In this document: piece by piece, positions 1 through 63,225 of the stretch
Position numbering within the stretch: position 1 is the stretch's first letter
Layout of the letters: every line of letters starts with the position of its first letter
Assembly (NCBI GenBank): GCA_032718475.1
Contig: JAUCBJ010000448.1
Span: 1 to 64,000, forward strand
Length of the DNA: 64,000 nucleotides
Direction of reading: 5' to 3'
Source: Nemertoderma westbladi
Lineage: Eukaryota > Animalia > Xenacoelomorpha
Made by a program: the position numbers and the translations under genes
Notes under the pieces: generated by a model
Told to the model about the DNA's origin: nothing
Databases searched by the model: none
The model's input: only the letters and a program-made list of their open reading frames with translations

Positions 1-3
1 TGT

Positions 4-3000
4 AGGGTCTCACCACCGGGTAGGTTGTACTGTTCCGGAGGAACTATAACAAGAAGACCAGACCCCGTGATACATGCGTAGCACATGATCTAGTCTAATC
101 CCGAACTGGGATTTTAGAGATAGCCTTTTTGAGAGCTAAGAAGCTTATCTGGAGAAATAGGCCAAAACCACCAATAAGATGTTCCTATACCCCCCCCTGG
201 AATTCACTGACTTGAGCAATGAACTATATTTGGGTCGATTCCGACATTCGGTTCTCCGTGTAGGGCCAATTTGAGGCCAAAAAATGGCCAATTCCGAAAT
301 TTGCAAAAATCTCAAGAACCGCTAAAGCTACAGACTCGGGACCGGCGCCAAAATGTAGGCAGCATATGGGTTTATATTGACAACCGTTTTTTTAAAGCGT
401 TCCGATCATGATCTTGGCCGCGATCAGTAAAGATCGTGTTTGATCGAAATTCGGACACTCAAGAATTGCTCCAATCGAAAAACTTAACATTACAAAAAGA
501 TTCAGTGACCCCACATTAGTTATGATTCCCGTTAAAAGATTTTCAAAAAAGTGAATTCTTCCTGATCAAAACACAAGATCCGGATCGGGCGAAGATCGGA
601 CGTCATAAAATCGTAACTATGCATTTTGGGTATAAACAATTACTGTAGGAAACGTTCAGAACACCGCCCTGATTCGATTAAAAAAAAAATTGGCTCGTGA
701 ATCCCAACGGTTCTCCGGCTAGGGCCAATTGAAGAAAAAGACGCTCGTCCCCTAGCAACAGCCGTTGCTATGGAGCTACAGTCCAGAACCGCTAACGCTA
801 CGGACTCGGGACCGGCGCCAATCGATAGGCAGCATATGGGTTTACCTTCACAGAGCTTCTTTTTTGGAGCGATGCCCGATCATGATCTTGGCCGCGATCA
901 GTAAAGATCAGTTTTGATCAGCAATCGGACACTCAAGGCTTGCTCCAATCGAAAAACTTAACATTACAAAAAGATTCGCGACCTCATCGATTTAGGCGGG
1001 GGTCGCCGTTAAAGTTTGGAAACAAAGAAATGAATTCTTCCTGATCAAAACGCAAGATCATGATCGTGCAAAGATCGGACTTTATAAAATCGTAACTATA
1101 CATTTTGGATATAAAACAATCAATGTAAAAAACGTTTAGAACGCCGCCCTGAGTTGATTAAAAAAAAAATTGGCACGATCGGCCAACCGGTTCTCGAGAT
1201 ATGCTTCCTGATCGTAAAAGATCGTGTTTTTTTGGTTTTTTGAGCTACAATCTCGAAAACTTTTCAACGAGACCCCCAATTTTTTTTTTTTTAATCGACT
1301 AGCATTTAGTAAGGGGCAACTTTTGTATCATTTTGAAATTTTCTAAAAGCGAATCTGATCAGCCGCGATCAGCAAAGATCGTGTTTTTCGGTGTTTTTTC
1401 GAAGATCAAGTCCTGTGAGTTCACCGTATCGAAAAACTTAACATCACAAAAAGATTCCTCACCCTCGAATTATGGGGGGTAGCCAAAATTTGGGCATAAA
1501 AAAGTTCAAGTCTAGTGGGTCAAAACTCAAGATCATGATCGCGAAAAGATCAGTACTTTTAAAATCGAATCTAAGCATTTTTCTAATAAACATTCATTGT
1601 AGGAAATGTTTACTGGACCATTCTGAGTTGATTAAAAAGAAAATTGGCTCGATCGGCCTAACCGGTTCTCGAGATCGGCTTCCTGATCGTAAAAGATCGT
1701 GTTTTTTTAGTTTTTTCGAATTTTCTCAAAAACTTTGTTTGAGACCCCCGATTTTTTTTTTACGAATCGACTTCTATGGTGAAGGAGCAACTTTTGTATA
1801 TTTCGAAATTTTCAAAAAGCGATTTGATCAGGCCGTGATCAGAAAAGATCGTGTTTTCGGTTTTATTTCAAAGAGCAAGTCCTGTGAGTTCACCGTATGG
1901 AAAAACTTAACATCACAAAAAGATTCCTCACCCTCGAATTAGGGGGGGTAGCCAAAATTTGGGCATAAAAAAGTTCAATTCTAGAGGGTCAAAAGATCAT
2001 GATCGCGAAAAGATCAGTTTTTTCGAAATTACTTCTAAGCATTTTGGGGCAAAACTTTCAAACTAAAAAACATTCACTGGAGTGTTCTAAGTAGATTAAA
2101 AAAAATTTCGACTCAATAGGCCTACCGGTACCGGAGATATGGTCGTTCAAAGTCTGCTTCCGGTAATTCGAAAATATTTCGAAAACCCTTGATCTAATTT
2201 TTTCCTTGAAAATATGTGAATGTACAGTTAGTGGACCCGCATCTAACGATATATCACAATCCATATTTCGGATGACAGGTACCGGTAAAATCAGACTTTA
2301 CCAAAAAAAATTCAAATTTTTTCTACTCATGTCTGACTTTCTCTAAAACTATAACAGGTATGAAAATACTTTCGCCCCAAGAAATGTTCGCCTATCCAAT
2401 GCGCTTCTAACGATGTATTCAGATTTGTACAACGGTCAATAGTTTTCGAGATATTAACAACTTAGGCCCTGATCACCATGATCGCAAAAGATCAGTTTTT
2501 TAGAATTTTGATGTAAGCCTTTTCAGACAAAATTTTCAAACTAAAAAACATTCACTGGAGTGTTCTAAGTAGATTAAAAAAAAATTCGACTCAATAGGCC
2601 TACCGGTACCGGAGATATGGTCGTTCAAAATCTGCTTCCGGTAATTCGAAAATATTTCGAAAATCCTTGATCGAATTTTTTCCTTGAAAATATGTGAATG
2701 TACAGTTAGTGGACCTGCATTTAACGATATATCACAATCCATATTTTAGATGACAGGTACCGGTCAAATCAGACTTTACCAAAAAAAATTCAAATTTTTG
2801 CAACTCATGTCTGACTATCTTGAAAACTATAATAGGTATGAAAACACTTTCGCCCCAAGAAATGTTCGCCTATCCAATGTGCTTCTAACGCTGTGCTCGG
2901 ATTTTGCATAGTATCAAAATCGACTACTTAACCCCCCCGCGGAGGGAACGGAGTGACCGGAGCGCAAAGGGTGGTGGGAGGGGTAGGTGGCAAACACTAT

Positions 3001-4226
3001 TTATAGGGTGGAGGGAGGGGCTAGTATATTACTTTAGGGTATTTGATTTTCTTTCAATATAGTTTAGGTACCTCAGTCTTATTTATAATATATTATACAT
3101 TATTCCAAATTATATGAAGTTCTAATAAACTAGATTTTCCACCTGTAGGATGAATATATAATGTTGGGCTCATAATATATTTGAAAAATAGATTTTAGTA
3201 TTTATATTGTATAACAGATTGCTAATTGATATTATTATGGTACTATACTAAAGACGCTTTGATTATCTGATCAAAAGTCAAGTACTGGCATATTTTTTAA
3301 TTCTTTAATCATTCTCTAAACTCTAAATCTCTAAAATCACACTAAATCTAAGATAAGAAACATTTGCTTTACTTATTGTTTGCTTGTGAGGTTATATTAA
3401 TATATAATGCCGCAGTATAATATCAAATGGGGTGAAACCCGTATTAACTGGAAAATGTTTCATTATTATTACAATTGGCACATTCAAGTATGTAGTATTA
3501 ATAAAGGATAAGTTAATAAAGGATAAATTAATTATTAATCCATATCTTCAACTTTGTCTATATGGTTGCATTAATAATAATGTTACTTTATCAATTGGGT
3601 CTAAAACAATCTTCTTTACTCCAAAATTATGATAACTTATAAGAGGACGGGGTTCGTGATTACTTGTCATTATTATATACTGCCCCCACTCGGCTTTAGA
3701 GAGTGCACCCTCGGTTGCTTACCGGACATATGGGCCACACATCGACAGGGTAATGTCCGTGGGACTACTCAACCAACCCGGCCATGCGAACGCAACCATT
3801 CCAAAGCACCTACATGAACTGGTTTCAGAATTGTTAAGATTTTTGAGAGAGTAGAGCCCAACATGCACTTTAAAGTAAAGAGTAATAAAAAATAATTATA
3901 TCTACCCATTAGAATATATATATATAACAATCATACATAACATATCACTAAATATGAATCCTTCTATCATTGTCATAACTTCTTGTAGTTTGTTTACGCA
4001 GTTGCATTACTAATATGTTATTATATTGATCGGGGCCAAACCCGCATGACACGACACAAGCCGATCCCAAATCGTCCCATAAATTCTACTCGCCAGCGCC
4101 ACCCGCCACTCGCCACCACTATTATTTGATTAATAGAGGGTTATGATATTTTTTTTGTTTTGGGGTTGGGAATAAAGTGCCCCCACTCGGCTATAGAGAG
4201 TACCTCTTGGTGGTTTCACTGGATGT
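4..4226 (+). mobile_element. Unit 1, non-coding family A (4223 bp)
   Basis: Window starts inside a junction (tgt|agggtctc, same as 29855 onward) and the unit ends at CTGGATGT 4219-4226. Six about 470-bp modules plus the A tail. Confidence 0.8.
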
Positions 4227-7200
4227 ATGGGCCAGTTCCGTTTACGTAAGGTCCGTAGGACTACGAACATCACTCCGGCCCAAAGCCCGACGACGGCCAC
4301 CTCGCTGAACTGGTTCGGAAAATTAATGATAGCCTTTTTTAGAGAATAGAAGGTTATCTCGAGAACTAGGCCAAAACCACCAATAAAATGTTCCTAGACC
4401 CCCCCCCAAAATTTAATTATAAGACTTTTAGTGAAACTCGGCGACTCGTGAATCTCGACGGTTCTCCGGCTAGAGCCAATTTGAGTCAAAAAGTCAGCTT
4501 CCCTAGCAACCTCGTTGCTATGGAGCTACAGCCAAAACGGCTAATGCTACGGAGTTGGGACCGGTGCCAATCGATAGGCAGCATATGGGTTTACCTTCAC
4601 AACTTCGAGTTTGAAGTTGCCCGATCATGATCTTGACCATGATCTTCAAAGATCAGTTTTGATCTGCAATCGGACACTCACCGCTTGCTCCAATCGAAAA
4701 ACTTAACATTACAAAAAGATTCAGAGACCCCACATTAGTCATGATTCCCGTTAAAAGATTTAAAAAAAAGTGAATTCTTCCCGGTCAAAACGCAAGATCA
4801 TGATCGCGCAAAGATCGGACTTTGTAAAATCGTAACTAAGCATTTTGGATATAAACAATTACTGTAGGAAACGTTCAGAACACCGCCCTAAGTCGATTAA
4901 AAAAAAAATTGGTTCGATCGGACAACCGGTTCTCGAGATCTGATACCTGATCATTAAAGATCGTATTTTTCGGTTTTTTCAAATTTTCTCGAAAACTTTG
5001 TTTGAGACCCCCGATTTTTTTTTTACGAATCGACTTCTATGGTGAAGGGGCACCTTTTGTGCATTTCGAAATTTCCAAAAAGCGATTTGATCAGGCCGTG
5101 ATCAGAAAAGATCGTGTTTTCGGTTTTATTTCGAAGACCAAGTCCTGTGAGTTCACCGTATGGAAAAACTTAACATCACAAAAAGATTCCTCACCCTCGA
5201 ATTAGGGGGGGTAGCCAAAATTTGGGCATAAAAAAGTTCAAGTCTAGTGGGTCAAAACTCAAGATCATGATCGCGAAAAGATCAGTACTTTTAAAATCGA
5301 ATCTAAGCATTTTTCTAATAAACATTCATTGTAGGAAATGTTTACTGGACCATTCTGAGTTGATTAAAAAAAAAATTGGCTCGATCGGACCAATGGTTCT
5401 CGAGATCTGATACCTGATCATAAGAGATCGTGTTTTTTTAGTTTTTTTGAATTTTCTCGAAAACTTTGTTTGAGACCCCCGATTTTTTTTTTACAAATCG
5501 ACTCCTATGGTGAAGGGGCAACGTTTGTGCATTTCGAAATTTTCAAAAAGCGATTTGATCAGGCCGTGATCAGAAAAGATCGTGTTTTCGGTTTTATTTC
5601 GAAGACCAAGTCCTGTGAGTTCACCGTATGGAAAAACTTAACATTACAAAAAGATTCCTCACCCTCGAATTATGGGGGGTAGCCAAAATTTGGGCATAAA
5701 AAAGTTCAAGTCTAGCGGGTCAAAACTCAAGATCATGATCGCGAAAAGATCAGTTCTTTTAAAATTGAATCTAAGCATTTTTCTAATAAACATTCATTGT
5801 AGGAAATGTTTACTGGACCATTCTGAGTTGATTAAAAAAAAATTGGCTCGATCGGACAACCGGTTCTCGAGATCTGATACCTGATCATTAAAGATCGTGT
5901 TTTTCGGTTTTTTGAAATTTTCTCGAAAACTTTGTTTGAGACCCCCAATTTTTTTTTTACTAAACGACTTCTATTAGGAAGGGGCAACTTTTGTGCATTT
6001 CGAAATTTTCAAAAAGCGATTTGATCAGGCCGTGATCAGGAAAGATCATGTTTTCGATTTTATTTCGAAGACCAAGTCCCGTGAGTTCACCGTATGGAAA
6101 AACTTAACATCACAAAAAGATTCCTTACCCTCGAATTAGGGGGGGTAGCCAAAATTTGGGCATAAAAAAGTTCAATTCTAGAGGGTCAAAAGATCATGAT
6201 CGCAAAAGATCAGTTTTTAAGAAATCTGATGTATGCATTTTCAGACAAAAATTTCTAAATAAGAAACATTCACTGGACCGTTCTGAGTAAGTTAAAACAA
6301 AATTCAACTCAATAGGCCTACTGGTACCGGAGATATGGTCGTCCAAAGTCAGCTTCCGGTAATTCGATAATATTTCGAGAACCGTTGATCGAATTTTTTT
6401 TTTGAAAAAATGTGATTGTACAGTTAGGGGACCCGCATCCAACGATATATCACAACTCATATTTCGGATGACAGGTACCGGTAAAATCAGACTTTACCAA
6501 AAAAAATTCAAATTTTTTCTACTCATGTCTGACTTTCTCTAAAACTATAATAGGTATGAAAATACTTTCACTGTAAGAAATGTTCGCCTATCCAATGCGC
6601 TTCTAACCATGCATTCAGATTTTTACCACGGTGAATAGTTTTCGAGATATAAACAACTTAAGCCCTGATCACCATGATCGCAAAAGATCACTTTTTTAGA
6701 ATTTTGATGTAAGCCTTTTCAGACAAAATTTTCAAACTAAGAAACATTCAATGGACCGTTCTAAGTAAGTTTTAAAAAAATTCAACTCAATAGGCCTACC
6801 GGTACCAGAGATATGGTCGTCCAAAGTCTGATTCTTGTAATTTCATGATAACTCGAGGACCATTTATCGAAAATTTTTTTTGAAAACATGTGAATGTACA
6901 GTTTGGTGGCCCGCATCCAGCGATATATCACAATCCATATTTCGCATGGCAGGTACCGGTAAAATCAGACTTTACCAAAAAAAATTCAAATTTTTGTTAC
7001 TCATGTCTGACTATCTTGAAAACTATAATAGGTATGAAAATACTTTCACCCAAAGAAATGTTCGCCTATCCAATGTGCTTCTAACGCTGTGCTCGGATTT
7101 TGCATAGTATCAAAATCGACTACTTAACCCCCCCGCGGAGGGAACGGAGTGACCGGAGCGCCACGGGTGGTGGGCGGGGTAGGTGGCAAACACTATTTAT

Positions 7201-8422
7201 AGGGTGGAGGGAGGGGCTAGTATATTATTTTCGAGTATTTGATTTCTTTTCAATATAGTTTAGGTACCTCGGTCTTATTTATAATATATTATACATTATA
7301 CCAAATTATATGAAGTTCTAATAAACTAGATTCTCCACCTGTAGGATAAATATACAATGTTGGGCTCATAATATATTTGAAAAATGGATTTTAGTATTTA
7401 TATTATATAACAGATTGCTAATTGATATTATTATGGTACTATACTAAAGACGCTTTGATTATCTGATCAAAAGGCAAGTACTGGCATATTTTTTAATTCT
7501 CTAATCAATCACTAAACTCTAAATCTCTAAAATCACTCTAAATCTAAGATAAGAAACATTTGCTTTACTTCTTGTTTGCTTGTGAGGTTATATTAATATA
7601 TAATGCCGCAGTATAATATCAAATGGGGTGAAACCCGTATTAACTGGAAAATGTTTCATTATTATTACAATTGGCACATTGAAGTATGTAGTATTAATAA
7701 AGGATAAGTTAATAAAGGATAAATTAATTATTAATCCATATCTTGAACTTTGTCTATATGGTTGCATTAATAATAATTTTACTTTATCAATTGGGTTTAA
7801 AACAATCTTCTTTACTCCAAAATTATGATAACTTATAAGAGGACGGGGTTCGTGATTACTTGTTATTATTATAAACTGCCCCCCACTCGGCTTTAGAGAG
7901 TGCACCCTCGGTTGCTTACCGGACATATGGGCCACACATCGACAGGGTAATGTCCGTATGACTACTCAACCAACCCGGCCATACGGACGCAGCCATTCCA
8001 ACGCACCTACATGAACTGGTTTCAGAATTGTTAAGATTTTTGAGAGAGTAGAGCCCAACATGCACTTTAAAGTAAAGAGTAATAAAAAATAATTACATCT
8101 ACCCATTAGAATATATATATATATATATATAACAATCATACGTAACATATCACTAAATATGAACCCTTCAATCATTGTCATAACTTCTTGTAGTTTGTTT
8201 ACACAGTTGCATTACTAATATGTTACTATATCAATCGGGGCCAAACCCGTATGACGCGACACAATCCGAACCCAATTCGTTCCATAAATTCTACTCGCCA
8301 GCTCCCACCCACCACTATTATTTGATTGATAGAGGGTTATGATATTTTTTTTGCTTTGGGGTTGGGAATTAAGTGCCCCCACTCGGCTATAGAGAGTGCC
8401 TCTCGGTACGTTCACTGGATGT
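4227..8422 (+). mobile_element. Unit 2, non-coding family A (4196 bp)
   Basis: Junction to junction (ends 8415-8422). Homologous to units 1 and 12 and to the ends of unit 13. Confidence 0.8.
8371..8422 (+). other. Conserved unit junction (exemplar): CACTC/GAGTG hairpin followed by invariant CTGGATGT; putative Rep origin/terminator
   Basis: 13 full copies, with CTGGATGT ending at 4226, 8422, 10532, 12646, 16850, 19072, 21193, 23413, 25632, 27745, 29857, 34075 and 63225. Function is inferred. Confidence 0.8.
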
Positions 8423-10532
8423 TCTGGCCCCAAAACGAAGTGTTCGCGTATGCGCAGCAATATTAAATCTAAAACGGCCACAAAGACGAAGACAAAGTCG
8501 AAGACGGCCACCCTAGTCTTGCGTTAGCTCTTTAGGGATACCAGAATCACGGAGGAGAAGCTTATCTCAGAAAGTAAGCAAGAACCACCAATAAGATGTT
8601 CCTAGACCCCCCCCCAGAATCGGCTCAATAGTCCATAGAGGTTTTTTTGGAGCGATCCGGCCGACGGGTAACCCGCTGGGTCCATTTTGACCCGTTTTTT
8701 CCCATTTTTCGGAGAAGAAATTTTTAAAGCATTTGTTTGAGAGAACCGCGTAACCCCTGAACATGGGACCAACGCAGTTCGAAAGAGCAAGGTCCAAACC
8801 CCCCAAAAAGTCTTTTTGGTGTAATATCGATCAACTTTGCGTCCGTGATCAGTAAAAGATCATAAAGATCGTGTTTGATCGCGAATCGGACAGAGAAGGA
8901 GTTTCCACATCTGAAAATGGTCTAGCCCATCGTCTTTCTCGTCCCCGAATTGTGGGGGGTAGCCGGAAGCCCAATTTCTCAAATTTAATTCTTGACCAAG
9001 ATCACGATCGTCGAAAAGATCATAAATGATCTTTAACTTTAAAGCTATTTGGGACTTAATTTTCTTAATAGAAATTGTTGACAGGACTGTTGCGAGTTGA
9101 TTAAAAGAAATTTCAACTCGATAGGCCTACCCGTACCGGAGATACAAAGATCCAAAGTCTGATGTATGATCTTTAAAGATCACCCTATGATGACTCGGTC
9201 GGTAATTTTTTTTAAATTAAATGAATGTTTAGAAAGGTCGCGAGCATCCAACCATGCATCGCGTTCCACGTTGCGGATGACTGCTGCTCCGGAAATCAGA
9301 CTTTACCAAAAAAAAACCGGATCTTCAAAGATCATTGCCGAATAAGTCGAGAACCGTAAGGGCTATGAAAAAACTTTCAACGGCAATAATATTCGCCTCT
9401 CCAATGCGCTTCCAACCATGTATTTGGATTTTTCGTAGCGTCGATATTTTTCGAGATATAGCCTTCGAAACGTGGGTATGCCAAAACGGGTCTTTGTACC
9501 GGTACCTAGGCCTAGCTGTACACGATTGGAGCGATTTAAACATTGGAATCTTAATGATTCGCGACTGGCTATACGCCAGTTTTTAAATTTCTGAAAAAGA
9601 CCCAGCGGTTGCAGAGATATGAAAATTTTTCAAATGTACCTCGCGTCGATCGAAAAGTGCCATCGTCGAAAACGAAAAATTTTAAATCTCAATTTTCACC
9701 ATGAAGAATTGATTTTGATGAAAAAGTCTCCAGACGAAAAGTGCTCAGAATCATTAATTACCTACAAGGGGATGAAATTCGAGTCACTAAAATGAATTTT
9801 AAAATTTTTTTTGGTTAAAATTTAGTTTGGACCAGGAACGAGGCTTAATCTAATATACAGTCAGTTGGCGGAGGGAGCGGAGCGACCGGAGCCCCCAAAA
9901 CTAAAACCCCTGGGTTACTGCCCCCCCTTGGGGGGGATGGGGGGGGATTATATAAATGGGTTGGTAGGTTCGGTGGTTCTAGAATTTTACAATTTACGTT
10001 AAAAAAAAAGTAAAAAATTTTTCGCTCGCTTCGCTCGCGCCCCCCCCCCCCCCCCCCCCGCGCGGATTTTACCTACAATATTATTAACTACATGTTCATT
10101 GAAGCTTACGATAATTTCCTACAGCGTCATATCAATATTTTCCATCCTTACAACTCATAATACTTTTCGCAAAAAATAAATTGTTAATAATATTCAAGTC
10201 ACATATACAACTACTTGGGTGAGTGTTTGTTACATAGTTGCATATATTTACAACATTAAACCTTTGACAAAAAGTATACAATGTGATGGGCTTACAGAAT
10301 TTCACAAGAAGAAATCTATTTTCGCCAGCAATGGCGGGGGTGTCATAATATGCCCCCCAACCTGTCCTCCTCCTCAGCCTGCTGTTGGACTCCCTGTTTT
10401 ACTAACACTTTACTATACGACCCTCTGGTAGTATACCCCCTGGTGGGGTCCTACTGCACGACGCCATACGTCTGTGACTTATAAGTGCCCCACTCGGCTA
10501 TAAAGAGTGCCCCTAGTTTTTTCCCTGGATGT
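8423..10532 (+). mobile_element. Unit 3, non-coding family B (2110 bp)
   Basis: Ends at junction 10525-10532. Near-identical to units 4, 7, 10 and 11. Confidence 0.8.
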
Positions 10533-15600: not shown

Positions 15601-16850
15601 TATAAATGGGTTGGTAGGTTCGGTGGTTCTAGAATTTTAGAAATTTACGTAAAAAAAAGTGCAAAAATTTTTCGCTCGCTTCGCTCGCGCCCCCCGCGCG
15701 CATTTTAACTTGTTACTTTTTCAATACCAGTCCTACAATATTATTAACTACATGTTAATCTTAGCTTACGATAATTTCCAACAGCGTCATATAAATATTT
15801 TCCATCCTTACAACTCTAATACTTTTCGCAAAAAATAAATTGTTAATAATATTCAAGTCACATATACAATTACTTGGGTGAGTGTTTGTAACATAGTTGC
15901 ATATATTTACAACATTAAACCTTTGACAAAAAGTCTACAATGTGATGGGCTTACAGAATTTCTCAACAGACAATTATGCTCGCCAGCAATGGTGGGGTGT
16001 CATAATGTCCCCCCCCCCTGGTAGTATACCATCTGGTGGTACTGCATGCCATACGTCTGTGACTTATTAAAATCTCAAAAAAAAATTGTATTTCTTACTT
16101 ATAGTGTTTAGATTAAGTCAATAAATACATACTTTATTTATATTCACATTTTAAATGTTTAAAAACTCAAAAAAATTTTCGCTCGATTTGCTTGTGCAGC
16201 ACCCTGTCTTTTGAAATGTAAAAAAACGTCAAAAAATTTTCCGCTCGCTTCGCTCGCGCAGCGCCCTCCCTTTTTAACTGTCAAAAAAATTTAAAAGTTT
16301 TCCGCTCGCTTCGCTCGCAAGTGGTCCTTGCATTCAGTGTTTTCACAAAGTAAATAAATACATACTTTACACTATTTTTCAGGTGATATATATTATTCGT
16401 GTGACGAAATGATTCCATCTTGCACACTGCGTATATTCTACATTACAGGTGTGCAATAATAATAAATGAGGGGTTTTTAGACCACCTCTTGACATCTACT
16501 TTAGTAACATATATATAACATACATGTGCAATGCACATTTTGTCCCTCCACGTGGATTGAAAGTGTACAACATTCTACCCCCCCCCCCCCCCTTCCACAT
16601 TTACACTCCCAGGAGTTCCCTATGCTTGCCTTTTTGCTTGCCTTTTTATTAACACTTTACTATACGACCCTAGGGTAGTATACCCCCTGGTGGGGTCCTA
16701 CTGCATGCCATACGTCTGTGACTTACAAGTGCCCCACTCGGCTATAGAAGTATACCCCCTGGTGGGGTCCTACTGCTGTACGCCATACGTCTGTGACTCT
16801 AAGTGCCCCACTCGGCTATAAAGAGTGCCCCTAGTTTTTTCCCTGGATGT
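12647..16850 (+). mobile_element. Unit 5, long family B variant (4204 bp)
   Basis: B head and B tail. The ACCACCAATAAGATGTTCC box occurs three times (12808, 13437, 14073), with extra 3' sequence at about 16060-16620. Ends at junction 16843-16850. Confidence 0.78.
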
Positions 16851-19072
16851 TTTGGGCCCAATCGGCAAGGATTGTTGATCTACGATCGTCTTATATCCCC
16901 CCGCCCCCCCACCCTTCGAGTTGTTCCTCGAACCATATGTTAGGCGTTTATCGCGCTTTAGGGGTAGCCTTTTTTAGATTGAAGAAGGCTATCTCTGAAA
17001 GTAGGCGAAAACCACCAATAAGATGTTCCTAGACCCCCCCCAGAATGGGCCAACTAAGAACAGAGAAATTTTTGGGACCGATCCGATGGACCGTTAACCC
17101 GCTGGGTCGATTTTGACCCGTTTTTGACCCATTTTTAGGGTAGCAATTTTAAAAAGCTTAATTTTTTGGGAAGATCGTCACCCCGGAAGATGGGACCAAC
17201 GCAGTTGGATAGAGGAAGGTCCAAACCCTTGGAAAGTAATGTTTCAGTTAATATCGATCAACTTTCCGTCCGTGATCAGTAAAAGATCGTAAAGATCGTG
17301 TTTGACCGCGAATCGGACAGAGAAGGAGTGCTCCAATCGAAAAGTGGTCAAAGTCAAAAGTGTTTCTCATCCCCGATTTAGGGGGGGTAGCCAAAATTTC
17401 AAAACGTCAAAATTAATTTTTCATCAAGATCATGATCTTCGAAAAGATCATAAAAATAAAATTTTTTCCAAGACATTTGGAGCTTAATTTTCTTAATAGA
17501 AATTGTTTACTGGACTGTTTCGAGGTGATTAAAAGAAATTCCAACTCGATTGGCCTACCGGTACCGGAGATATGAAGATCCAAAGTCTGACGTTTGATCT
17601 TTGAAGATCGCTCTATGAAGACTCGGTCGATAAATTTTTTTAAATAATATGAATGTTTAGAAAGGTGGCGCGCTTCCAACAATGTATCGCGTTTCAAGAT
17701 GCGGATGACAGCTGCTCCGGAAATCAGACTTTACCAAAAAAAAACCGGATCTCCAAAGATCATTGATGAATAAGTCGAGAACCGTAAGAGATATTGGAAA
17801 ACTTTCAACGGCAATAATATTCGCCTCTTCAATACGCTTCGAACCATGTATTCGGATTTTTCATACTGTCGATATTTTTCGAGATACAGCCTTCGGAACA
17901 TTGGTATGCCTAAACGGGTGTTTGTACCGGTACCTAGGCCTAGCTGTGCTTATTTTATTTCAATTATACATTCGGATCGTCATCATTTGCGACGGGCTAC
18001 ACGCCAGTTTTTAAATTTTTGAAAAAGACCCAGCGGTTCCAGAGATATGAAAATTTTTCAAATGTACCTCGCGTCGATCGAAAAGTGCCGTCGTCGAAAA
18101 CGGAAAATTTTAAAACTCAATTTTCACCAAGAAGAATTCACTTTGGTGAAAAAGTTTCCAGATGAAAAGTGCTTAGAATCATTAATTACATACAAGGAGA
18201 TGAAATTCGAGTCACTAAAATGAATTAAAAAAAAAAAAATTTCAAAAAGTAAAATTTTTCCAAGTATTGATATTAGATAGGTTTATTAGTTATGCATTTG
18301 AATTTAACTTTAACCTTATGATATTGTATTGACTATAGAGAGTATTAGAAGGTTGTATAATGTTCTTTAAAAGTCAAAAAATTTTTCGCTCGCTTCGCTC
18401 GCAGGTCGCCCCCTTTACATTACTCAAACCATTTGGCGGAGGGAGCGGAAGCGACCGACGCCCCCTTTTTGGAGGGGGGGTATGGGGGGGGCGATTCCCC
18501 GCCCCCCACATGCTGTTTTTAAAATGGGATGGTGGGTGGGTTTATTTATTCATTAACATTTCCGTTCATTGTAAGTTTAGTGATTGGTGGGGGTGGTGGG
18601 GGTTAACCCCCACATTATTCGAAGTTTAGTTAGTGGTAAGTTTGGTGGGGGTGGTGGGGGTCATCCCCCACTTTCGCATTTCATTATATGGGATGTTTTT
18701 TTGAACCTTATTCTGAAAACTCTTGCATTCTCCTATAAAAGAGCACTTTGATTTATAAAAGAGCGCTTTGATTTCTAAATGTCACTGTGCCGGGGAGGCA
18801 CCAGACATAATAATATTAGTACTAAGGACTGGTGCATGAGGAGGGCGGCTGCCAAGTATAACGTCTGTGACCTACTTCTGCGACATACGTCTGTGACTTA
18901 TATCTGTGACTTACGTCTGTGACATATGACCTACATCTATCTGTGACCTACGTCTGTGACCTACGTCTGTGACTGACTTACGTCTGTGACTAAAAAGAGG
19001 GTTTTTGATCCCTACCCACTACACAAGTGCCCCACTCGGCTACAGAGAGTGCTAGTGGATTTACCTGGATGT
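16851..19072 (+). mobile_element. Unit 6, non-coding family C (2222 bp)
   Basis: Ends at junction 19065-19072. Near-identical to units 8 and 9. Confidence 0.8.
18861..18992 (+). repeat. About 13-bp TACGTCTGTGAC tandem repeats in the family C tail
   Basis: About 9 degenerate copies, also at about 23200-23335 and 25420-25552. Single copy in B tails. Confidence 0.85.
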
Positions 19073-38040: not shown

Positions 38041-38221
38041 AACATTCAAACTGTCCGTCTTGCGGTTCAACACCCCCCCCCCCCCCCCCCCCCCCCACTA
38101 CCCCCGTATTAGTATACTTTACACCCTTAAATTGGTCAATAAAGGCTATAGCTAGAGTAGGTCATATAGAGTTAATGTTGCAAAAATTGTATCAAATAAC
38201 AAATAAGTGTTTAGTATTTAC

Positions 38222-44137: not shown

Positions 44138-44295
44138 ATTTGTATACTATTTGTACGCCCCCCCCCCCCCCCCAGCCGTGTCAATTTGTATTCTATTTGT
44201 ACACCCCCCCCCCCCCCAGCCGTGTCAATTTGTATTCTATTTGTACACCCCCCCCCCCCCCCCAGCCGTGTCAATTTGTATACTATTTGTACACC
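44138..44295. repeat. About 44-bp poly-C-containing repeat, about 3.5 copies
   Basis: ATTTGTATTCTATTTGTACA(C)nAGCCGTGTCA. Confidence 0.85.
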
Positions 44296-44304
44296 GCATA
44301 CATC

Positions 44305-51757: not shown

Positions 51758-54700
51758 CCAACAGGATTCAACCTTCAAGGTTCAATTAGAACCCCCTGGA
51801 TTAGACCGGTAGTTTCTGGACCTCGGTTTACTGGTTATGATACTGCAAGGTCATCTGCAGTACCCGCCACTGGAGGTGCACCACAACCCACTGCATCATC
51901 TGAAACGCCCAGATGCTCATCCTCAGAAAGGGTTTCATCAATGGCTATTCAGACTAATGCAGCAGCTTGGTTCCGTGTTGAAGCTGAAAAGCGCAATATG
52001 GAATTGGTGTGGGTACGTGGCGATGGAAATTGCATGTTTAATGCATTCCGTATTTCATCACAAGGAATTACTGATTCCCCTCTGTTGATGAGAAAGAAAG
52101 TACGGGACTATCTCCGGGAGCATTCTCAGGAATTTTCTGATAAGTATGCTCCTGGGCCATATGAACTGCCTTTTGCGGAATTTGTCGCACAGCTAATAAA
52201 CCAATCTCATGACGTGGTATTTGGTAACTCCATTGTCCTTGAAGCCCTCGGTAGAATTTACTCACGTTTATTCGTGGTATTGACTACTGAGTTTGGCAAT
52301 CATATGGAACAAGTTGGGGTGCCAGGAATGCCCAACGTCCTGATTGGCCATGATTATGTTGGCGCGCATTATTATGCTTTTAGACCGTTGCCATTATGTG
52401 GAGTTACCCGTGTGGAACCACCTTCTTCGAGTGCAAGTGCAATACCGCTTCCTCACCCACAACTGTCCACAACCACTGCATCAACTTCACCTCATGTTGA
52501 ACAACAGCAACCACCTCCACCTCAACCTTCAACATCCCAACCCCAAGCAGGAGAATTTGGGGAATGTGATGATAGAATGGATTGGTCTGCATTTGAAGAG
52601 GACGAGGAGACCCTTCGATATGACTCAATCCGTATCGATCATTTGAATCTTCCCGATATTGACCTGAGTGAGGAAAGTGATGAGGATATGGTTGAAGAGG
52701 TGGATATTGTTGTTGAAGACAATGATGGTGAAGTTGCAATGGAAGTTGATGGTGACTATCAACATGATAGTGTGGTCATTCTAGAGAATGAGGAGGTATG
52801 TGTGAATTGCAGGCGCATTAAAACTCCAGAACATCCATTAGAGTTACGCATGAGTAGGAAAGCAGTTAATCGGGAATATGGTTCGCTCCGCCATGCCAAT
52901 GAGATGGATTATGTGCTTTGTAAGGAGTGCTCCATCTATTTGGGAGGAAAGGGTTCTCATGGTCCTTGGGCCAGTGGCTGGCCATCCTTTATATATTCAG
53001 GTCTAGTAAATAGGGTTGCTGGTTTGGGTAATCCGACCAACTTACTTGATTTACTGCCAGAAGAGTTAAGGGACAGCTGGAGGTTTGTCATTGATGAATT
53101 TGATCTTCGTCCTACGAAGACTGTTCTCAAGGACTTTACCAAGGATCTTCGTGAGTACCATGAAGTGATGGAGGAAATCGACTTAGGAAAGCTTACCAGT
53201 TTAATGAACAATGGTTGCTTTCCTAGTGTTGTGTGTGGTATGGGATGTGTCCAGTACATGGAAGCATGCCGACCCATTCCATTCAATCACTTCTTGGCGA
53301 GCCGTTTCCCAATTAAACAGGTATTTCATGCTAAGCCAGATCAAGTACGGTCCTTCAGGAGTGATTGGCCATATACATTCAAGGAACTCGATTGGGAAGC
53401 GATGGGTGGTACGATTGTAACTAGTAAAGGCTTGGGTATCTTGGTATGCAAGAAGCACAAGTCAACTAACAAGTTAGTCTTCCACCTTCCAAACAACCCT
53501 GTATCTCCTGATGACCCTATTATTTACCCAGACATGTTTGCCATGGCCACTTTAACTCCTCATATAGTGCGTGGCCCACGTGATGGTGTTTATTCGAACA
53601 GTTTCCATACTGTAAAGGCTGAAGGAAATTCCTATGGGTTGTCGTCGTGCTATATCGAGCTTGATCCTGTGCACCAATACTTCCCTGAAGAAGCCCTCAG
53701 GGATGGCAAGTTGTACCACGCTGAATCTCTCACATTAGAATGTCGTCCTGATGTGAACGAGTTCATGCGACAGGGACGACATCGCCATCTTGATCCTGGA
53801 TATATTGAACATGTCACTGGCTATTATAAACCACCGGAACAACACTTCATTCAGGAAGCCTTGGAAGGAGCTACATACATGGATGTGTATGACTGCTACA
53901 GGCTTCATGAACGAATTTTGAATAAGGGAACGGAAGAGAACGAAAGAGATAGATTTTCTTTCAAGGATATCTGTCTCGATGAAATGCCAATTATGCAACC
54001 TTGTAATGCTATCGGCAGAAGGTCATGGTGTATTCATAATGAGACAGGTTTCTCTACTGGCCTTAGACTACAGATGCTATCATTTTCAGTGATGCATTGC
54101 CGAGTGATGCATAGTATCCTCCAGGCTTTGGAAGTTAAGAGTGATGCCCAAAAGGCACTTCTTAAATATCTGAAGTTTGGGGTGTATGCTGCGTATTGCA
54201 CAGCACAGCAGAGACGTATGTATGCCTTTCATGTTCTTGAGCGATTAGAGGAGGACATTGATCTTGGTTTACATCGTCAAACTGTTGACAGCCAAGTAGC
54301 TCTAATGCTGGAAGAACTTATTCCAGGTTGTATTGAGGTTAATAGTATTGATGACATAATCAATGATGACATTTATGTCCTTAGCAAGCCACATAATACT
54401 GGCAGAGGGGAGCCATTCCCTTTGCAGTTACGTGGTTATTACCTTCACGCTGCTTTGACGGTTAGCTTTGATAAGTTGTCAGGAATCTTTCGATGGAGTG
54501 ATGATCATTCATTCCAGCACTTCTTACATGAGGGAAATAAACTGGTGCCACCTATGGTAGATGATCCTGAGGGTGCCATTAAGAAGGCGCAACTTTACAT
54601 CTATGTAAAGAAGGGCTGCTATAATCTTACTGAAATACAGCGTGATCTGTTCATTGCAAATTTCGCTGATCAAAGTAAAGTTAAGTGTTCCCAGCATAAA

Positions 54701-57700
54701 ACATTACTCCGTAGAGAAAACTTTAGGGAGGATAATGGATTATGTGTTAAGTCGCACTCTGGTACTAGTGTGAGTAAGAATATCCGCTGGCGGTGCCCTT
54801 ATGGGTTTCCTGAAAATCAGTGTGAGGTTGGTTTGTGTCTTAGTCACTGGAAGGATGTGATTGTTCAACCTGAGATTGAGATACTTATTGGTCCTTGCAA
54901 TGACCAGAGTAATGTTCAAATTCAACACTCGAGAGGTCTACAAGTAGGTGGCGATCAGCGCCGTCCTGATGATGACTCAGATGATGAGGAAGTGGAGGAT
55001 CCTCTAGATAGGGCAAGCAGAATTTTTGGTGGTGATTTTCAAACTGATGATTCTGCTATTCCTATGGAAGACTATGTGGTGGGGATAAACGATGGTGACT
55101 ATGATGACGATGAGTATCCATTAGTAGGATTGGCAACTGGTGCCACTATTCCTATTTATGATGTTGGACGGGTCTCTTCTCATTGTCTTTTGAACAATCA
55201 GAATGGCCTCCAGATACTTAAGCGTACACGTGGTTATGGGGGTAAAGGTAGCGCCTATGTAAATAAGGTGCTGTATCATATTGCCTCCCGTTCACCTGGC
55301 ATCCATTTGCCCCTTATGTACATTGAAGGATTACTGTTTCCAAGAAACTTCTGGTACATGAAGGCTAATGGAAGCGTTGTTGGTGCTATTCCATCATTCT
55401 TGTATGGCCTTCCATTCAATGCTCCTAATTATGGTATTGCATCACTACGGGATCATATGCATATCAGGACATTTGATGAACGGCTGTTTTCGTCAAAGGA
55501 TCCAGCCTATCTTCATTACTGGTTTGATGTGTACATGAACTCAGTATTGAACCATACTTCTGCTCAGCTTGTTCTCCGTAAGGGATTTGAACAAGTCTGT
55601 GAGGGGGAGGAAAGGCTTCAATCTGGTGCTTCAGATACCATTTTACGTTTCGACGAAATGGAATCACGGCGTCGTGTGAGGGAGCTTTGTGCACTTTTGC
55701 GGTATGGTTACTGGAATTATTTTTTCACAGCCACCTGTAATAATGCGCATACTCCAGGTGTTTCACCAGTTTATGATGCAGTTCGGAGGCTCTATGAGCA
55801 TCTGGATGGCAGAAAGCTGGCGTTAGCTATGGAGAAGTATACTGCTTTATTCACACGCTGTTGGAATCGTTTCGCAGATCACCTTCACCATTGGATTGAA
55901 CGAGGTATTGATAAACCCTTTGGTGATGTGAAGTATATATGGACACGAATGGAGGCTCAAGATCAGGGATCCCCTGTAGCAAATATGCTACATATCCATG
56001 GTGGAATAACCCTCCACCCGGAGTCTATAGAGGAGACACGCGATAGGATTTGCTGTCGAACCACTGACTTGTTATCTCCTTTCTTTGGGACAGATCGTCC
56101 TCAATTGGTTGAGCAAGGAATCATTGAGGATGACGAATGGTCTCAGCTGTTCAGCCTAAAGCACCTGCAAACGCATAACTGCGACCGAGCTGGCAGTCGG
56201 TGCCATAAACGTATTGACGAGGCTGGAAATACGTTTTGCCGAATGCCTCGTCATGTTGCTAGTATGGATAATGGCTTTAAACCTAAGACTGACATGTACA
56301 CCGATGATGCCCTCAATGATCTGGAATCTATAGACCTTCTTCAAAGAAATGATGATGGGTCTCTTAGATTAGATGATCAGGGTAATCGATTGGCACATAT
56401 AAATCTTATTGGAGGTCGCCATACTTATTCTGCTAGTGGTTTTGAGTTTGCGGTACCAACGATACCTAGGTATTGGGTGGCTTTGAGATCATCCACCAAT
56501 GTACAGGCTTGTGATACAAAGTTTTGCACTTCGTATTGTGCCAAGTACTTGGGGGGTCCTGAAGAACGGCGTGCAGTTAAAATTGACGGACAAAAGAATC
56601 TGACCTCAGTGAAGGTCACTCATACTGAACAGGAAGGAATAAAGATATCTGGGGTTAATTATCTCAAGAAGCAGGCAGATATGAAGGATAGCAATAAGAG
56701 TGGCATCAAAGCTCGGGAGATGGGATATCCAGAGATTCTTCATAATCTTCTGGGCTTCCCATACATCAGATCAAATGTGGACTTTGTCCATGTTTCCACT
56801 CTGAGTCCTGAGTACCGGCACGGCATTGTGAAACAACAAACAAGAGATGTTCATTTAGGAGTTCTTGAAGCTGTTCAAACACGATTAATGATGCCAGGTT
56901 TACCAGAATGGCGTAACTTCACAAATAATCAAATTCTTACTGTCAATGAGATGGGTAAGAGTGATTATATTGCTGATGGTTTAACTTCTTTCAGCATAAG
57001 AGCTCCTGAGCTTCGAATCTTTGACAAACTTGACGTATTCTACGAATGCTTTGCTCTTTCAGCAAGGGTCAAGAAAAGTCAATGTGATTTGGAGCTGAAG
57101 AAGTGCCATTGGATAGATGGTAATAACCGTCTATGGAAGCTACGACCTTCTGGCATTCCGATAGCTGTAGAATTTCTAACAAGAAAGGCTACAACTGGTA
57201 ATGTTATCGCTAGGCAGTTATTGGATGAGGTATTCTTACCTATATCCAGAGGAGAACTTCATAAGATCTTTGTGAGTTCGCTTGAGAAACATAAGAAACC
57301 TGCCATAGTTGTGTTCTCAAGTGTTAGCCCATTGCAAATGGGACGTTTCTTGTTTCACCTTGCCTATTCCCTTGGAAGTTTTGAGACTGAACTAGATTTA
57401 TTAGATGTTCAGGATATTCGTACAACTTTCAAGAAGGCAAGTCTAATATCAGATGATGTTATTGTGCCGGAATGTGAAGTCACTGACTTATTGAAATCCT
57501 ATGTCATGAGAGACTTGCATTATCAATCTATTGGTAATGCACAATTCCAACGTTATCTACATCTTGCAATCACTGGTATTCGGCAATTCTTTGCTGGTGA
57601 TGGCTTGTTATATGAGGCTATTCCTCTATTTTATGAGGATAGTATTCGTGTGCAAGCTACGAAAGAAGTAGAAAGGTTAGAGGAGGTCAGCCATGTCAAT

Positions 57701-59806
57701 CTTATGGAGGCTTTATACGGGCAGGAGGGATTGATATTGCCAGATATGGCTGATTTAGCACGTGCTACACGGGCCCATCCTCTAGAGTGGCAACCTTTAC
57801 TGGATGTGGCTAGTGGCCAAACAGGGGAATCTGTTTCTGAGCAAAAGAACATGCTACAAGTATTGGTGAATGCTGTTGATGCTTATTGTCATCCATCATC
57901 AACATTTGTTAAATCCCCTTGGTTGGTTGGCGCACCTGGTGTTGGCAAGACTCATGTTATGCTAATGGGACTGGCATATAGCCTCTCGCGTGGTTTAAAT
58001 GTGCAGCTAACTGCTATTACCAGCGAGAGAGCTAGGTTGCTTGGTGGTGTACATCTACATCTACTGATGCCATTCAGTGTTGGAAGAGGTTCACGCTCAT
58101 TAACTAGCACTTGTTTAGCCCAGGATTGCTTATTAGCACTGGCAAAGAATCCATCCAAACTTGCATATCTCCAAAGATTGAATGTTATCTTCTTTGAGGA
58201 ATGTGGAATGCTCTCATGTGAGTATCTTGCAGCTATTGACTTGGTATTACGCCGAATCTGTAACACACAGAGACCCTTCGGTGGCAAACTCTTCATTGGG
58301 TGTGGAGATCATCTACAATTAGAACCTGTGGATGGTAGGGTTGTATGGCTCAGCACACATTTTTTAACAACATTCACTGTTTGTGTGGCGAGACATTATG
58401 TTCGTAGTGCTAATGACGAGGAATTGCAACACGTCATTAATATTATGCGAAGCACCAACCCAAGTCCAAACCTTATTGATGAAGTGATTGCTATATTGAA
58501 GCGGCGGTGTAACTTTGTTGATAGTTGGGATGAAGTCCCTGATGATGTCTTGAAGGTTGTTGGCACTAGAGCTGCAGAGCAAGAGGTACTACAGAAATAC
58601 CTAAACCTTCATAGGAATGAGCCTGGGACAGTTGTAATAAGCGGCCATGATGAGGTTAGTTCTACTGCTTCTAATACTAGCTCATGGAAGCCTACAAACA
58701 CTCCCAGCATTATCAGTTCAATCACGAGATCTTGTCGGGAACCCATGGAGTTGGTTTTATTTCTAAACCAGATCCTTAGGTTCACATACAATCAGCTTTC
58801 TGGACAACCTCAATTTTCCAATGGTCAATTGTCTGTTGTTAAAGCAGTACCAGCTGATTGCGATGATTTCTTGGAATTGGCTGTTGTTCCAAAAGGTTGT
58901 CGTCAAATTGAAGAGGTTGAGAGTACCTGGCCTGTGGCTAAAGTTAAGCAACGGCCTTGTGCTGCCACTTCTACTGGTTTTGGTAGCAATCTTCTTGGCA
59001 GACGGGTGCAGTTTCCGGTGCGCTACTTTGGGGCAGGAACTGTCCATGGTATACAAGGACAAGATGCCCCAAGCTTAGCAACACAGATCTCCTCTGATGC
59101 CAAGAGTAAGTATAGGCTATGGCTAAAAACCCAGATAACAACCTTAATATCGAGGGTACGGTATCTCAACACATTTACATTTGTTGGCAAGATGGATGAG
59201 GCCTTTAATTGTATCCGCATCTTGCTTAGCATGAAGTCGCCCAATCAAGATTATATAGACCAGTTATTAAGACGTCTTAATATTCTTATTGGGCCCCCTC
59301 AGGTACCTCTCATGTTTGAATATCACCCCTTCCGACCCTTCTTTAGGGAAATCCCTGGTGCACAAATTGGATTTGTGTATATGCTTATCAGCATTCGGTT
59401 GCCTAATGTGAATTACACTGGTCAAACTGAGAACCTGAAAATGAGACTTCAGAGTCACCAAAATAAAACAGGTTCGGAGTTTACAAAGAATCCTGTTTTA
59501 CATCCTTGGTCTCTGTATGCTTTCATATACGGGTTTCCTGGTGACGCCAAGAGTAAACTCAATACAGAAAACCGTAAGGGATTTGAGACTAGGTGGCATC
59601 ATATGGCAGAGACTGGACCTGCAGGTGGGGATATGACCAAAGGACGAGACCAGGTGTATGCTATGGGTGTTGAGATTGTGCGTCAATATAATGCTGAGTT
59701 TTATGTTGATGCAGATGGAAATGCAAAGCGTTTTGAACTAACAATGGTTAAATGCCAAGAGTTAATTCAAGATAATTTGCAAGCCGAGATCCCAATGTCT
59801 CAATAG
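51758..59806 (+). CDS. Exon 3 of RepHel-like polyprotein: OTU + Cys-rich + HUH Rep + Pif1-like helicase + GIY-YIG (contains the 2621-aa ORF 51941-59806)
   Basis: OTU VRGDGNC...HYY (about 52012-52380). CVNC and CKEC pairs (about 52800, 52918). Rep motif I YFFTATCN (55718), II HIH (55991), III YCAKY (56534). Walker A GAPGVGKT (57929), Walker B FFEECG (about 58190), PFGGK...GDHLQLEPV, QFPV...TVHGIQG, LISRV. C-terminal FVY...YTG...RLQSH...PW...GF...FE. Acceptor ttttttag at 51757 is open in frame to the ATG at 51941 (183 nt). Confidence 0.93.
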   Translation, partial: PTGFNLQGSIRTPWIRPVVSGPRFTGYDTARSSAVPATGGAPQPTASSETPRCSSSERVSSMAIQTNAAAWFRVEAEKRNMELVWVRGDGNCMFNAFRISSQGITDSPLLMRKKVRDYLREHSQEFSDKYAPGPYELPFAEFVAQLINQSHDVVFGNSIVLEALGRIYSRLFVVLTTEFGNHMEQVGVPGMPNVLIGHDYVGAHYYAFRPLPLCGVTRVEPPSSSASAIPLPHPQLSTTTASTSPHVEQQQPPPPQPSTSQPQAGEFGECDDRMDWSAFEEDEETLRYDSIRIDHLNLPDIDLSEESDEDMVEEVDIVVEDNDGEVAMEVDGDYQHDSVVILENEEVCVNCRRIKTPEHPLELRMSRKAVNREYGSLRHANEMDYVLCKECSIYLGGKGSHGPWASGWPSFIYSGLVNRVAGLGNPTNLLDLLPEELRDSWRFVIDEFDLRPTKTVLKDFTKDLREYHEVMEEIDLGKLTSLMNNGCFPSVVCGMGCVQYMEACRPIPFNHFLASRFPIKQVFHAKPDQVRSFRSDWPYTFKELDWEAMGGTIVTSKGLGILVCKKHKSTNKLVFHLPNNPVSPDDPIIYPDMFAMATLTPHIVRGPRDGVYSNSFHTVKAEGNSYGLSSCYIELDPVHQYFPEEALRDGKLYHAESLTLECRPDVNEFMRQGRHRHLDPGYIEHVTGYYKPPEQHFIQEALEGATYMDVYDCYRLHERILNKGTEENERDRFSFKDICLDEMPIMQPCNAIGRRSWCIHNETGFSTGLRLQMLSFSVMHCRVMHSILQALEVKSDAQKALLKYLKFGVYAAYCTAQQRRMYAFHVLERLEEDIDLGLHRQTVDSQVALMLEELIPGCIEVNSIDDIINDDIYVLSKPHNTGRGEPFPLQLRGYYLHAALTVSFDKLSGIFRWSDDHSFQHFLHEGNKLVPPMVDDPEGAIKKAQLYIYVKKGCYNLTEIQRDLFIANFADQSKVKCSQHKTLLRRENFREDNGLCVKSHSGTSVSKNIRWRCPYGFPENQCEVGLCLSHWKDVIVQPEIEILIGPCNDQSNVQIQHSRGLQVGGDQRRPDDDSDDEEVEDPLDRASRIFGGDFQTDDSAIPMEDYVVGINDGDYDDDEYPLVGLATGATIPIYDVGRVSSHCLLNNQNGLQILKRTRGYGGKGSAYVNKVLYHIASRSPGIHLPLMYIEGLLFPRNFWYMKANGSVVGAIPSFLYGLPFNAPNYGIASLRDHMHIRTFDERLFSSKDPAYLHYWFDVYMNSVLNHTSAQLVLRKGFEQVCEGEERLQSGASDTILRFDEMESRRRVRELCALLRYGYWNYFFTATCNNAHTPGVSPVYDAVRRLYEHLDGRKLALAMEKYTALFTRCWNRFADHLHHWIERGIDKPFGDVKYIWTRMEAQDQGSPVANMLHIHGGITLHPESIEETRDRICCRTTDLLSPFFGTDRPQLVEQGIIEDDEWSQLFSLKHLQTHNCDRAGSRCHKRIDEAGNTFCRMPRHVASMDNGFKPKTDMYTDDALNDLESIDLLQRNDDGSLRLDDQGNRLAHINLIGGRHTYSASGFEFAVPTIPRYWVALRSSTNVQACDTKFCTSYCAKYLGGPEERRAVKIDGQKNLTSVKVTHTEQEGIKISGVNYLKKQADMKDSNKSGIKAREMGYPEILHNLLGFPYIRSNVDFVHVSTLSPEYRHGIVKQQTRDVHLGVLEAVQTRLMMPGLPEWRNFTNNQILTVNEMGKSDYIADGLTSFSIRAPELRIFDKLDVFYECFALSARVKKSQCDLELKKCHWIDGNNRLWKLRPSGIPIAVEFLTRKATTGNVIARQLLDEVFLPISRGELHKIFVSSLEKHKKPAIVVFSSVSPLQMGRFLFHLAYSLGSFETELDLLDVQDIRTTFKKASLISDDVIVPECEVTDLLKSYVMRDLHYQSIGNAQFQRYLHLAITGIRQFFAGDGLLYEAIPLFYEDSIRVQATKEVERLEEVSHVNLMEALYGQEGLILPDMADLARATRAHPLEWQPLLDVASGQTGESVSEQKNMLQVLVNAVDAYCHPSSTFVKSPWLVGAPGVGKTHVMLMGLAYSLSRGLNVQLTAITSERARLLGGVHLHLLMPFSVGRGSRSLTSTCLAQDCLLALAKNPSKLAYLQRLNVIFFEECGMLSCEYLAAIDLVLRRICNTQRPFGGKLFIGCGDHLQLEPVDGRVVWLSTHFLTTFTVCVARHYVRSANDEELQHVINIMRSTNPSPNLIDEVIAILKRRCNFVDSWDEVPDDVLKVVGTRAAEQEVLQKYLNLHRNEPGTVVISGHDEVSSTASNTSSWKPTNTPSIISSITRSCREPMELVLFLNQILRFTYNQLSGQPQFSNGQLSVVKAVPADCDDFLELAVVPKGCRQIEEVESTWPVAKVKQRPCAATSTGFGSNLLGRRVQFPVRYFGAGTVHGIQGQDAPSLATQISSDAKSKYRLWLKTQITTLISRVRYLNTFTFVGKMDEAFNCIRILLSMKSPNQDYIDQLLRRLNILIGPPQVPLMFEYHPFRPFFREIPGAQIGFVYMLISIRLPNVNYTGQTENLKMRLQSHQNKTGSEFTKNPVLHPWSLYAFIYGFPGDAKSKLNTENRKGFETRWHHMAETGPAGGDMTKGRDQVYAMGVEIVRQYNAEFYVDADGNAKRFELTMVKCQELIQDNLQAEIPMSQ

Positions 59807-62232: not shown

Positions 62233-63225
62233 TAATGGAAAGGCATTCCAGATGTTTTATGATTATTATCTTACTCATTATCATTTACTTCATTACCATT
62301 CTATATTATATACCTATACTCTAAATCTCTAAAATCACTGTAAATCTAAGATTAGATAAAATCACTGTAAATCTAAGATTAGAAGCATTTGCTTTACTTC
62401 TTGTTTACTTGCAAGGTTATTTTAATATATAATGCCTCAGTATAATATCAAATGGGGTGAAACCCGGATTAACTGGAAAATGTTTCATTATTATTACAGT
62501 AGTGTTTAAGTAAGTAGTATTAATAAAGGATAAGTTAATTATTAATACATATCTTCAACTTTGTTTGTATGGTTGTATTAATAATAATGTTACTTTATAA
62601 ATTGGGTCTAATACCATCTTCTTTACTCCAAAATTATGATAACTTATAAGAGGATGGGGTTCGTGATTACTTGTTATTATTATAAAGTTCGGCCACTCGT
62701 CCCACTCGGCTTTAAAGAGTCCTGCTTACCATACATATGGGCCACACATCGACAGGGTAATGTCCGTAGGACCACTCAACCAACCCGGCCATGCAAACGC
62801 AGCCATTCCAATGCACCTACATGAACTGGTTTCAGAATTGTTAAGATTTTTGAGAGAGTAGAGCCCAACATGCACTTTAAATTAAAGAGTAATACAAAAT
62901 AATTATATCTACCCATTAGAATATATAGATAACAATCATACGTAACATAAATCACTAAATATTAATCCTTCAATCATTGTCATAACTTCTTGTAGTTTTT
63001 TTTACGCAGTTGAATTACTATTATGTTACTATATCGATCGGGGCCAAACCCGCATCACGCGATACAAGCCGAACCCAATTCGTGCCATAAATTCTACTCG
63101 TCAGCTCCCACCCACAGCTATTATTTGATTGATAGAGGGTTATGATATTTTTTTTGCTTTGGGGTTGGGAATTAAGTGCCCCCACTCGGCTATAGAGAGT
63201 GCCTCTCGGTACGTTCACTGGATGT

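Follow-up and report, generated by a model that had tools for sequence, protein, structure and literature searches.

Likely shape-encoded left ends in a tandem array of a little-described Helitron lineage

The window, a stretch of 64,000 nucleotides from Nemertoderma westbladi (contig JAUCBJ010000448.1), comprises 14 units of a Helitron-like family, arranged head to tail. The units measure 2.1-4.2 kb, apart from one of 29 kb and the last one, which is cut. Their borders were set by the copies of the junction 8-mer CTGGATGT and by the window start, which reads TGT. The 8-mer is present in 14 copies on the + strand of the window; 13 copies are preceded by a common hairpin motif and one lies within a large frame. 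Window position 1 corresponds to the TGT of a head and may reflect either the true end of a molecule or a break in the assembly at a junction. In the junction described here in most detail the 8-mer is located at 4219..4226 (+ strand), and the putative nick falls at 4223|4224 or 4222|4223. At 13/13 junctions the head pairs with the downstream body and the right-end variant with the upstream body, indicating that unit types switch inside the 8-mer. We further observed an alternation of three body types and four head types, joined exactly at 13/13 junctions (window 1-34072 and 63223). Simple rolling-circle concatemers are expected to repeat a single unit. The tandem junctions read A|T, and a target-site duplication is absent at 13/13 of these tandem junctions.

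The preceding unit likely terminates on its right in the sequence 4184..4223 (+ strand), which consists of a hairpin with a G...A closed 9-nt loop, followed by CTGG(A). A hairpin and then CTGG were found at 13/13 junctions with a spacing of 14-18 nt. Many contigs from four DNA runs carry the right-end motif behind unlike upstream sequence, and at a single loose end (n=1) CCGGA is followed by T and unrelated letters. A search of viral, metagenome and prokaryote collections yielded 0 matches to the motif. Each long unit is closed by a second right end, which follows an inner, decayed junction at a distance of about 500 nt (3687-4223, 7884-8419, 33547-34072 and 62703-63222), as expected from an end bypass that absorbed a short neighbouring unit. 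In addition, the B-type right end (4205-4216) is complementary over 10-12 nt to a conserved CCACCAA motif (165-176), a length not above that of the control.

The 29-kb unit (34073-63222) harbors an apparently intact open frame of 2,621 aa (51941..59806, + strand), encoding an OTU domain, an HUH Rep domain with the motifs LHIHG and YCAKY, a PIF1 helicase and an SLX1-like GIY-YIG domain. The PIF1 match (E 4e-9) together with the HUH and YxxKY motifs identifies the product as a RepHel protein. The Helitron_like_N domain, for which the match (E 0.005) stays below the cut-off, was matched in 6/7 family members, and the GIY-YIG domain likewise in 6/7 proteins of the family. No Pfam match to DUF6570 or an AP endonuclease was obtained in 7/7 proteins at E 0.05. 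The best structure matches of the 2,621-aa protein are PIF1 helicases, Helraiser (E 1e-4; helicase match to PDB 7lcc) and SLX1 (E 0.01), and six relatives of 24-34% identity were found among 4,249 candidates. Based on the repeated junctions, the transposase frame and these relatives, we consider the window a tandem array of a single Helitron-like family whose bodies are filled with satellites. Both sides of the transposase frame are occupied by long satellites of 21/35-nt, CAC-rich and pyrimidine-rich type (36626-38114, 40734-42170, 44191-51100 and 60000-61420). Upstream of this frame, a possible splice acceptor and a short frame (51199-51940) suggest that earlier exons of the transposase gene may exist. 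A 208-aa frame on the - strand of the same unit (39395-40021) gave a weak match to GDSL/SGNH hydrolases (E 8e-4), below the cut-off.

The first ~115 nt of each unit, termed here the head, fall into four types, A (2 copies), B (3), C (3) and D (6), all on the + strand. Type B is represented by 4224..4327, a variable structured cassette that is likely the left terminal sequence of unit U01, with further copies at 34073 and, as variant B', at 63223..63330. Type A is found at 1..118 and 29855, type C at 16848..16962, 21191 and 23411, and type D at 8420..8535, 10530, 12644, 19070, 25630 and 27743. Inner, decayed heads follow the inner right-end copies at 3727..3791, 7924, 33587 and 62734 (+ strand). 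A head model run over the window returned, below E 1, only these 14 + 4 sites. Among four metagenome loci no head was detected by motif or model, and among viral contigs no related locus.

The heads are organized around an outer stem, P1, which in the 4224 copy spans 4228..4282 and pairs 4228-4233 with 4277-4282 (6 bp); other heads form 4-6 bp. The original prediction had placed outer stems 1-3 nt past the 8-mer, at 5-10/60-65, 4228-33/4277-82, 8425-29/8476-80 and 16854/16903, and all of them were found there. The third core pair of P1 differs by lineage, being C-G, G-C or T-A. P1 encloses hairpin 1 (4236..4249), which is weak in the 4224 copy (2 bp, a mismatch and 2 bp), where the predicted minimum-energy fold is an extended single hairpin. 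It comprises 3-5 bp in A, B', C and one D head and is weak in B and most D heads. The three C heads indeed keep a fixed 5-bp stem with three loop variants, as had been claimed. Hairpin 2 (4251..4261) consists of 4 bp capped by a c-GTA-g triloop, that is, GTA closed by a C-G pair. The triloop is GGA in A, GTA in B, GCA in D and the reversed TAC in C. All four small hairpins of the original prediction are present, but the D hairpin in register is not GCG-tatg-CGC but TGC-GCA-GCA, located at head positions 32-40 in 6/6 D heads, two of which add an extra G-C pair.

Hairpin 2 is followed by an unpaired linker (4262..4276) with a partly conserved A(C/T/A)ATC motif. This motif (4267-4271 and equivalents) is complementary to the junction GATGT, lies 5-6 nt before the P1 3' arm in B, C and D, and could form a pseudoknot or serve as a guide. 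The linker-junction match amounts to 5/5 in B (3 heads), 4.5 in C, 4 in five D heads and 3.5 in A and one D head; such pairing is indistinguishable from a conserved motif, since the junction partner never varies. Outside P1, two small hairpins occupy 4287..4318 (4287-4296 and 4305-4318, + strand), and A and D heads carry a c-GNA-g hairpin at the first of these sites. A sequence-conserved block follows (4328..4407, + strand), containing a 7-bp stem (4328-34/4352-58) and then the CCACCAATAA motif.

The start of this block is the point of head exchange. Over 66 nt the head types are 55-62% alike, compared with shuffled medians of 45-50%, and the block after them is 76-86% alike between types. The A unit at 29855 and the B unit at 34073 are 90-100% alike between positions 151 and 550, but over the two initial 50-nt blocks the values are 56% and 50%. 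Judged by these alignments, the heads appear to behave as swappable cassettes, in that either the head was swapped or the body was homogenised around it.

Outer stem, hairpin 1 and hairpin 2 occur together in 14/14 heads, whereas the share is 4.4% among 10,229 control windows and 2.1-5.3% among shuffles, under position limits chosen after the heads were inspected. On an alignment made from sequence alone (11 of 14 heads), RNAalifold predicted only hairpin 2, with 3/4 pairs changed on both sides; the outer stem was not recovered from these 11 heads. In this alignment 90.9% of 44 hairpin 2 cells are paired, as opposed to 62.9% after shuffling (0/500 reached this value), and 25-66% when the arms are slid. 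With hand registration and one representative head for each of the four lineages, 34/36 cells of P1 and hairpin 2 are Watson-Crick pairs (permutation mean 25.0; 12/100,000), and seven double-sided changes stand against two broken cells. These structure tests ignore shared ancestry, and the four lineages are related. The compensatory changes of the original prediction are present but few in number, because the 14 heads represent only four lineages.

P1 has only 4-6 bp and a largely invariant G-C core. Moreover, 0/18 heads (14 terminal and 4 inner) exceeded dinucleotide shuffles in folding energy at p<0.05, whether folded as DNA or RNA and on either strand, and a further set gave 0/8 stretches above shuffles. 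Thus, architecture and covariation go beyond chance, as had been proposed, but folding energy does not. With regard to global stability shuffled controls fold equally well, an outcome that the original prediction itself had named as speaking against it. The lack of an energy signal indicates a set of short stems rather than a stable fold.

We observed five c-GNA-g hairpins of at least 3 bp on the + strand of the four representative heads (4 x 110 nt), which is a new observation; the null mean is 0.11 and 0/20,000 shuffles reached this number. As a look-elsewhere control, the best of all 64 triloop classes reached four in 0/5,000 shuffles. The - strand of the same heads contains one such hairpin. 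Window-wide, 19/33 c-GNA-g sites on the + strand and 3/5 on the - strand lie in heads, which make up 2.4% of the window. A and D heads carry a second c-GNA-g hairpin near position 78, and the GCGTTAGC motif is present in the D head. The motif is kept in 11/11 terminal A, B and D heads compared with 1/4 inner heads (Fisher p 0.009, with copies that are not independent). C heads show no c-GNA-g on the + strand (0/3), their hairpin 2 loop being its reverse complement. In addition, units of type C (5 bp) and type D (3 bp) contain a further c-GCA-g hairpin on the + strand, some 350 nt from their start (17200-17212, 21545, 23763 and 8773). The middle base of the triloop varies among heads (G, T or C), which the GNA motif permits; GNA is the only one of 64 triloops to give a very stable mini-hairpin in DNA, and the tetraloop hairpin made of RNA melts far lower, as described in the excerpted review PMC13037366. 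As c-GNA-g is stable in DNA, a single-stranded DNA signal fits the heads better than an RNA; type C, with its reversed loop, counts against this mini-hairpin reading. Substitution asymmetry marks no strand (C>T 52, G>A 39, p 0.21).

Taken together, the heads are likely the left ends of tandem Helitron-like units, and their stems and hairpins, predicted on the single-stranded + strand, likely provide a shape signal for the Rep-helicase at the nick; we assign this reading a probability of roughly 0.6. Since the frame reads on the + strand and the junction is preceded by a hairpin and CTGG, the simplest assignment of the head is to the left terminal sequence. Direct support comes from the array, the transposase frame, the switch of types within the 8-mer, the covarying pairs, the + strand c-GNA-g hairpins and the exchange of heads. 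Recognition by Rep is a likely function by analogy. The single-stranded DNA signal contemplated in the original prediction is supported, as the heads adjoin the junction of an HUH Rep-helicase family and carry the mini-hairpins on the + strand. The transposase would nick the + strand at CTGGA|TGT, remain on the TGT end and peel the strand off, and the displaced head would fold into a short branched structure, in which the mini-hairpins may withstand nucleases, keep off single-strand binding protein and offer the end to Rep. Copying would halt at the right-end hairpin and CTGG(A), and each junction, reading A|T, would rebuild the nick site, so that joining or recombination of new copies could occur at precisely this site and produce mixed-family arrays. 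For Helraiser, the text of PMC5876387 describes a + strand nick at the left end, a requirement for the left end, a stop at the right-end hairpin and precise joining. Left ends of Helitron-like elements are more diverse than right ends according to the cited part of PMC11417382.

Among the other explanations, a reversed polarity, by which the element would lie on the - strand, start with TC and use the head as right-end terminator structure, appears unlikely to us. The - strand units do begin with TC after A, the canonical Helitron start, and the C heads carry c-GTA-g on that strand. Moreover, frames opposite to the element (PMC13085455, PMC5148889, PMC3627910) and right-end stems with compensatory changes (PMC13085455) are known from the cited portions of these studies. 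However, the transposase frame, the G...A closed end hairpin and CTGG are all on the + strand, as are 5/6 c-GNA-g hairpins of the representative heads, and the - strand end lacks CTRR. It is likewise improbable that the heads merely combine inherited similarity with short chance stems, without selection on structure. In its favor, there is no energy signal, the heads are still slightly alike (55-62% vs shuffled medians of 45-50%), and only four lineages with partly hand-chosen windows and registers are available; it is at odds with a ratio of seven double-sided changes to two broken cells among the representatives of the four lineages, with a triloop enrichment that survives the look-elsewhere control and with the decay of the inner heads.

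The several mini-hairpins found together in the heads would also suit a second-strand priming signal on the displaced strand, comparable to phage G4 or plasmid single-strand origins. Plasmid single-strand origins are usually exposed last, and to our knowledge priming by a eukaryotic host needs no dedicated site of that kind. The head would be displaced first, not last, which makes priming less likely, and we give it a low probability. Mini-hairpins with poor SSB binding do occur at the priming sites of G4, St-1, alpha3 and ssiA (excerpts of PMC13037366), yet Helraiser is modelled with ordinary lagging-strand synthesis in the text cited from PMC5876387. A small structured RNA or ribozyme at the transcript start, also considered in the original prediction, is highly improbable. 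The outer stem with an inner hairpin is often the RNA minimum-energy fold, and C hairpin 1 loops resemble GNRA; on the other hand, an Rfam scan of the window returned four weak matches, none at a head and all far under threshold, 0 G-T pairs occur in 126 core cells, and the GNA triloop is a DNA motif whose matching RNA tetraloop hairpin is far weaker (PMC13037366, in part). In a comparison by eye, the layouts of HDV-like, hammerhead and twister ribozymes did not fit.

The left end is essential for Helraiser (as stated in sections of PMC5876387), although it varies more than the right end. If the heads are shape-encoded left ends, the array offers four natural, interchangeable versions with different letters and one shape beside an apparently intact transposase frame, and thus ready substrates and compensatory variants for tests of shape recognition. 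We also envisage, as a doubtful extension, a GIY-YIG Helitron lineage in which the left end would be read as a branched single-stranded DNA shape and the junction shape would serve as landing pad. The SLX1-like nuclease or Rep might cut folded heads, possibly guided by the linker as in IS200/IS605, and subfamilies might insert end to end and trade head cassettes.

Compared with known systems, the heads resemble Helitron2/HLE2 in having a hairpin close to the 5' terminus of an element that encodes RepHel, compensatory changes, which Helitron2 5' hairpins carry as well (PMC3627910, in part), a 5' T and an OTU domain. A 5'-terminal hairpin was found in 14/14 heads, but it is branched and not an inverted-repeat arm. 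Unlike HLE2, the heads contain several stems, branched over ~115 nt, with the main hairpin 30 nt inside the end. A search for asymmetric terminal inverted repeats (8-18 nt) gave best matches of 9-12 nt in 13 units against control medians of 10-13 nt, and none at the 5' end. The protein differs as well, possessing a C-terminal GIY-YIG and no DUF6570/AP endonuclease match. Without inverted repeats and marker domains, the family cannot be placed in HLE2. The right end resembles HLE1/Helraiser, with a hairpin followed by CTRR-like CTGG. HLE1 inserts between A and T, which the A|T of the tandem junctions would fit, and HLE2 between T and T; head-to-tail arrays are also known for Helraiser (PMC5876387, in part). 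The spacing of 14-18 nt compares with a usual 10-15 nt in the cited part of a wheat paper describing canonical Helitron ends (PMC13286980). Unlike HLE1, the + strand start is TGT or ATGT, and TC is obtained only under reversed polarity; the absence of a 5' TC speaks against membership in HLE1, which the cited text of PMC3627910 describes without a 5' hairpin.

In the main texts searched, which included few subscription papers, we found no precedent for a branched Helitron left end that lacks asymmetric inverted repeats and lies in mixed-family arrays, and no report of mini-hairpins at Helitron ends. GIY-YIG in a Helitron is mentioned once in the part of PMC11417382 cited here, for a moss family. 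The Paramecium Helitrons, a third clade with satellites and alternative ends, share with the array a very long transposase frame, satellites on both sides, non-autonomous derivatives and alternative terminal sequences; unlike the array, they end in CCAA and sit in telomeric repeats, and the excerpted text makes no mention of GIY-YIG (PMC13085455). The mini-hairpins match those of single-stranded DNA origins and the N4 promoter, as GCGNAGC, CCGNAGG and GCGTTAGC recur without any change in heads of types A, B and D; a C-G closed GNA triloop on a G-C rich stem is found in 11/11 A, B and D heads and 0/3 C heads. In these phages and plasmids they are signals for primase or RNA polymerase, and the cited portion of the review does not mention transposons (PMC13037366). 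The 5' hairpins of FoHeli1/2 from Fusarium have, as printed, GAA loops, which sit on a C-G pair, and one of their stems is nearly identical to type B hairpin 2 (PMC5148889, in part). By analogy, the heads may work like the 5' hairpins of Helitron2 and FoHeli1/2, and the Fusarium loops raise the possibility that Helitron ends, and the strand that moves, could generally be recognized in searches by their mini-hairpins. The array thus likely presents the shape-encoded left end of a little-described Helitron lineage.
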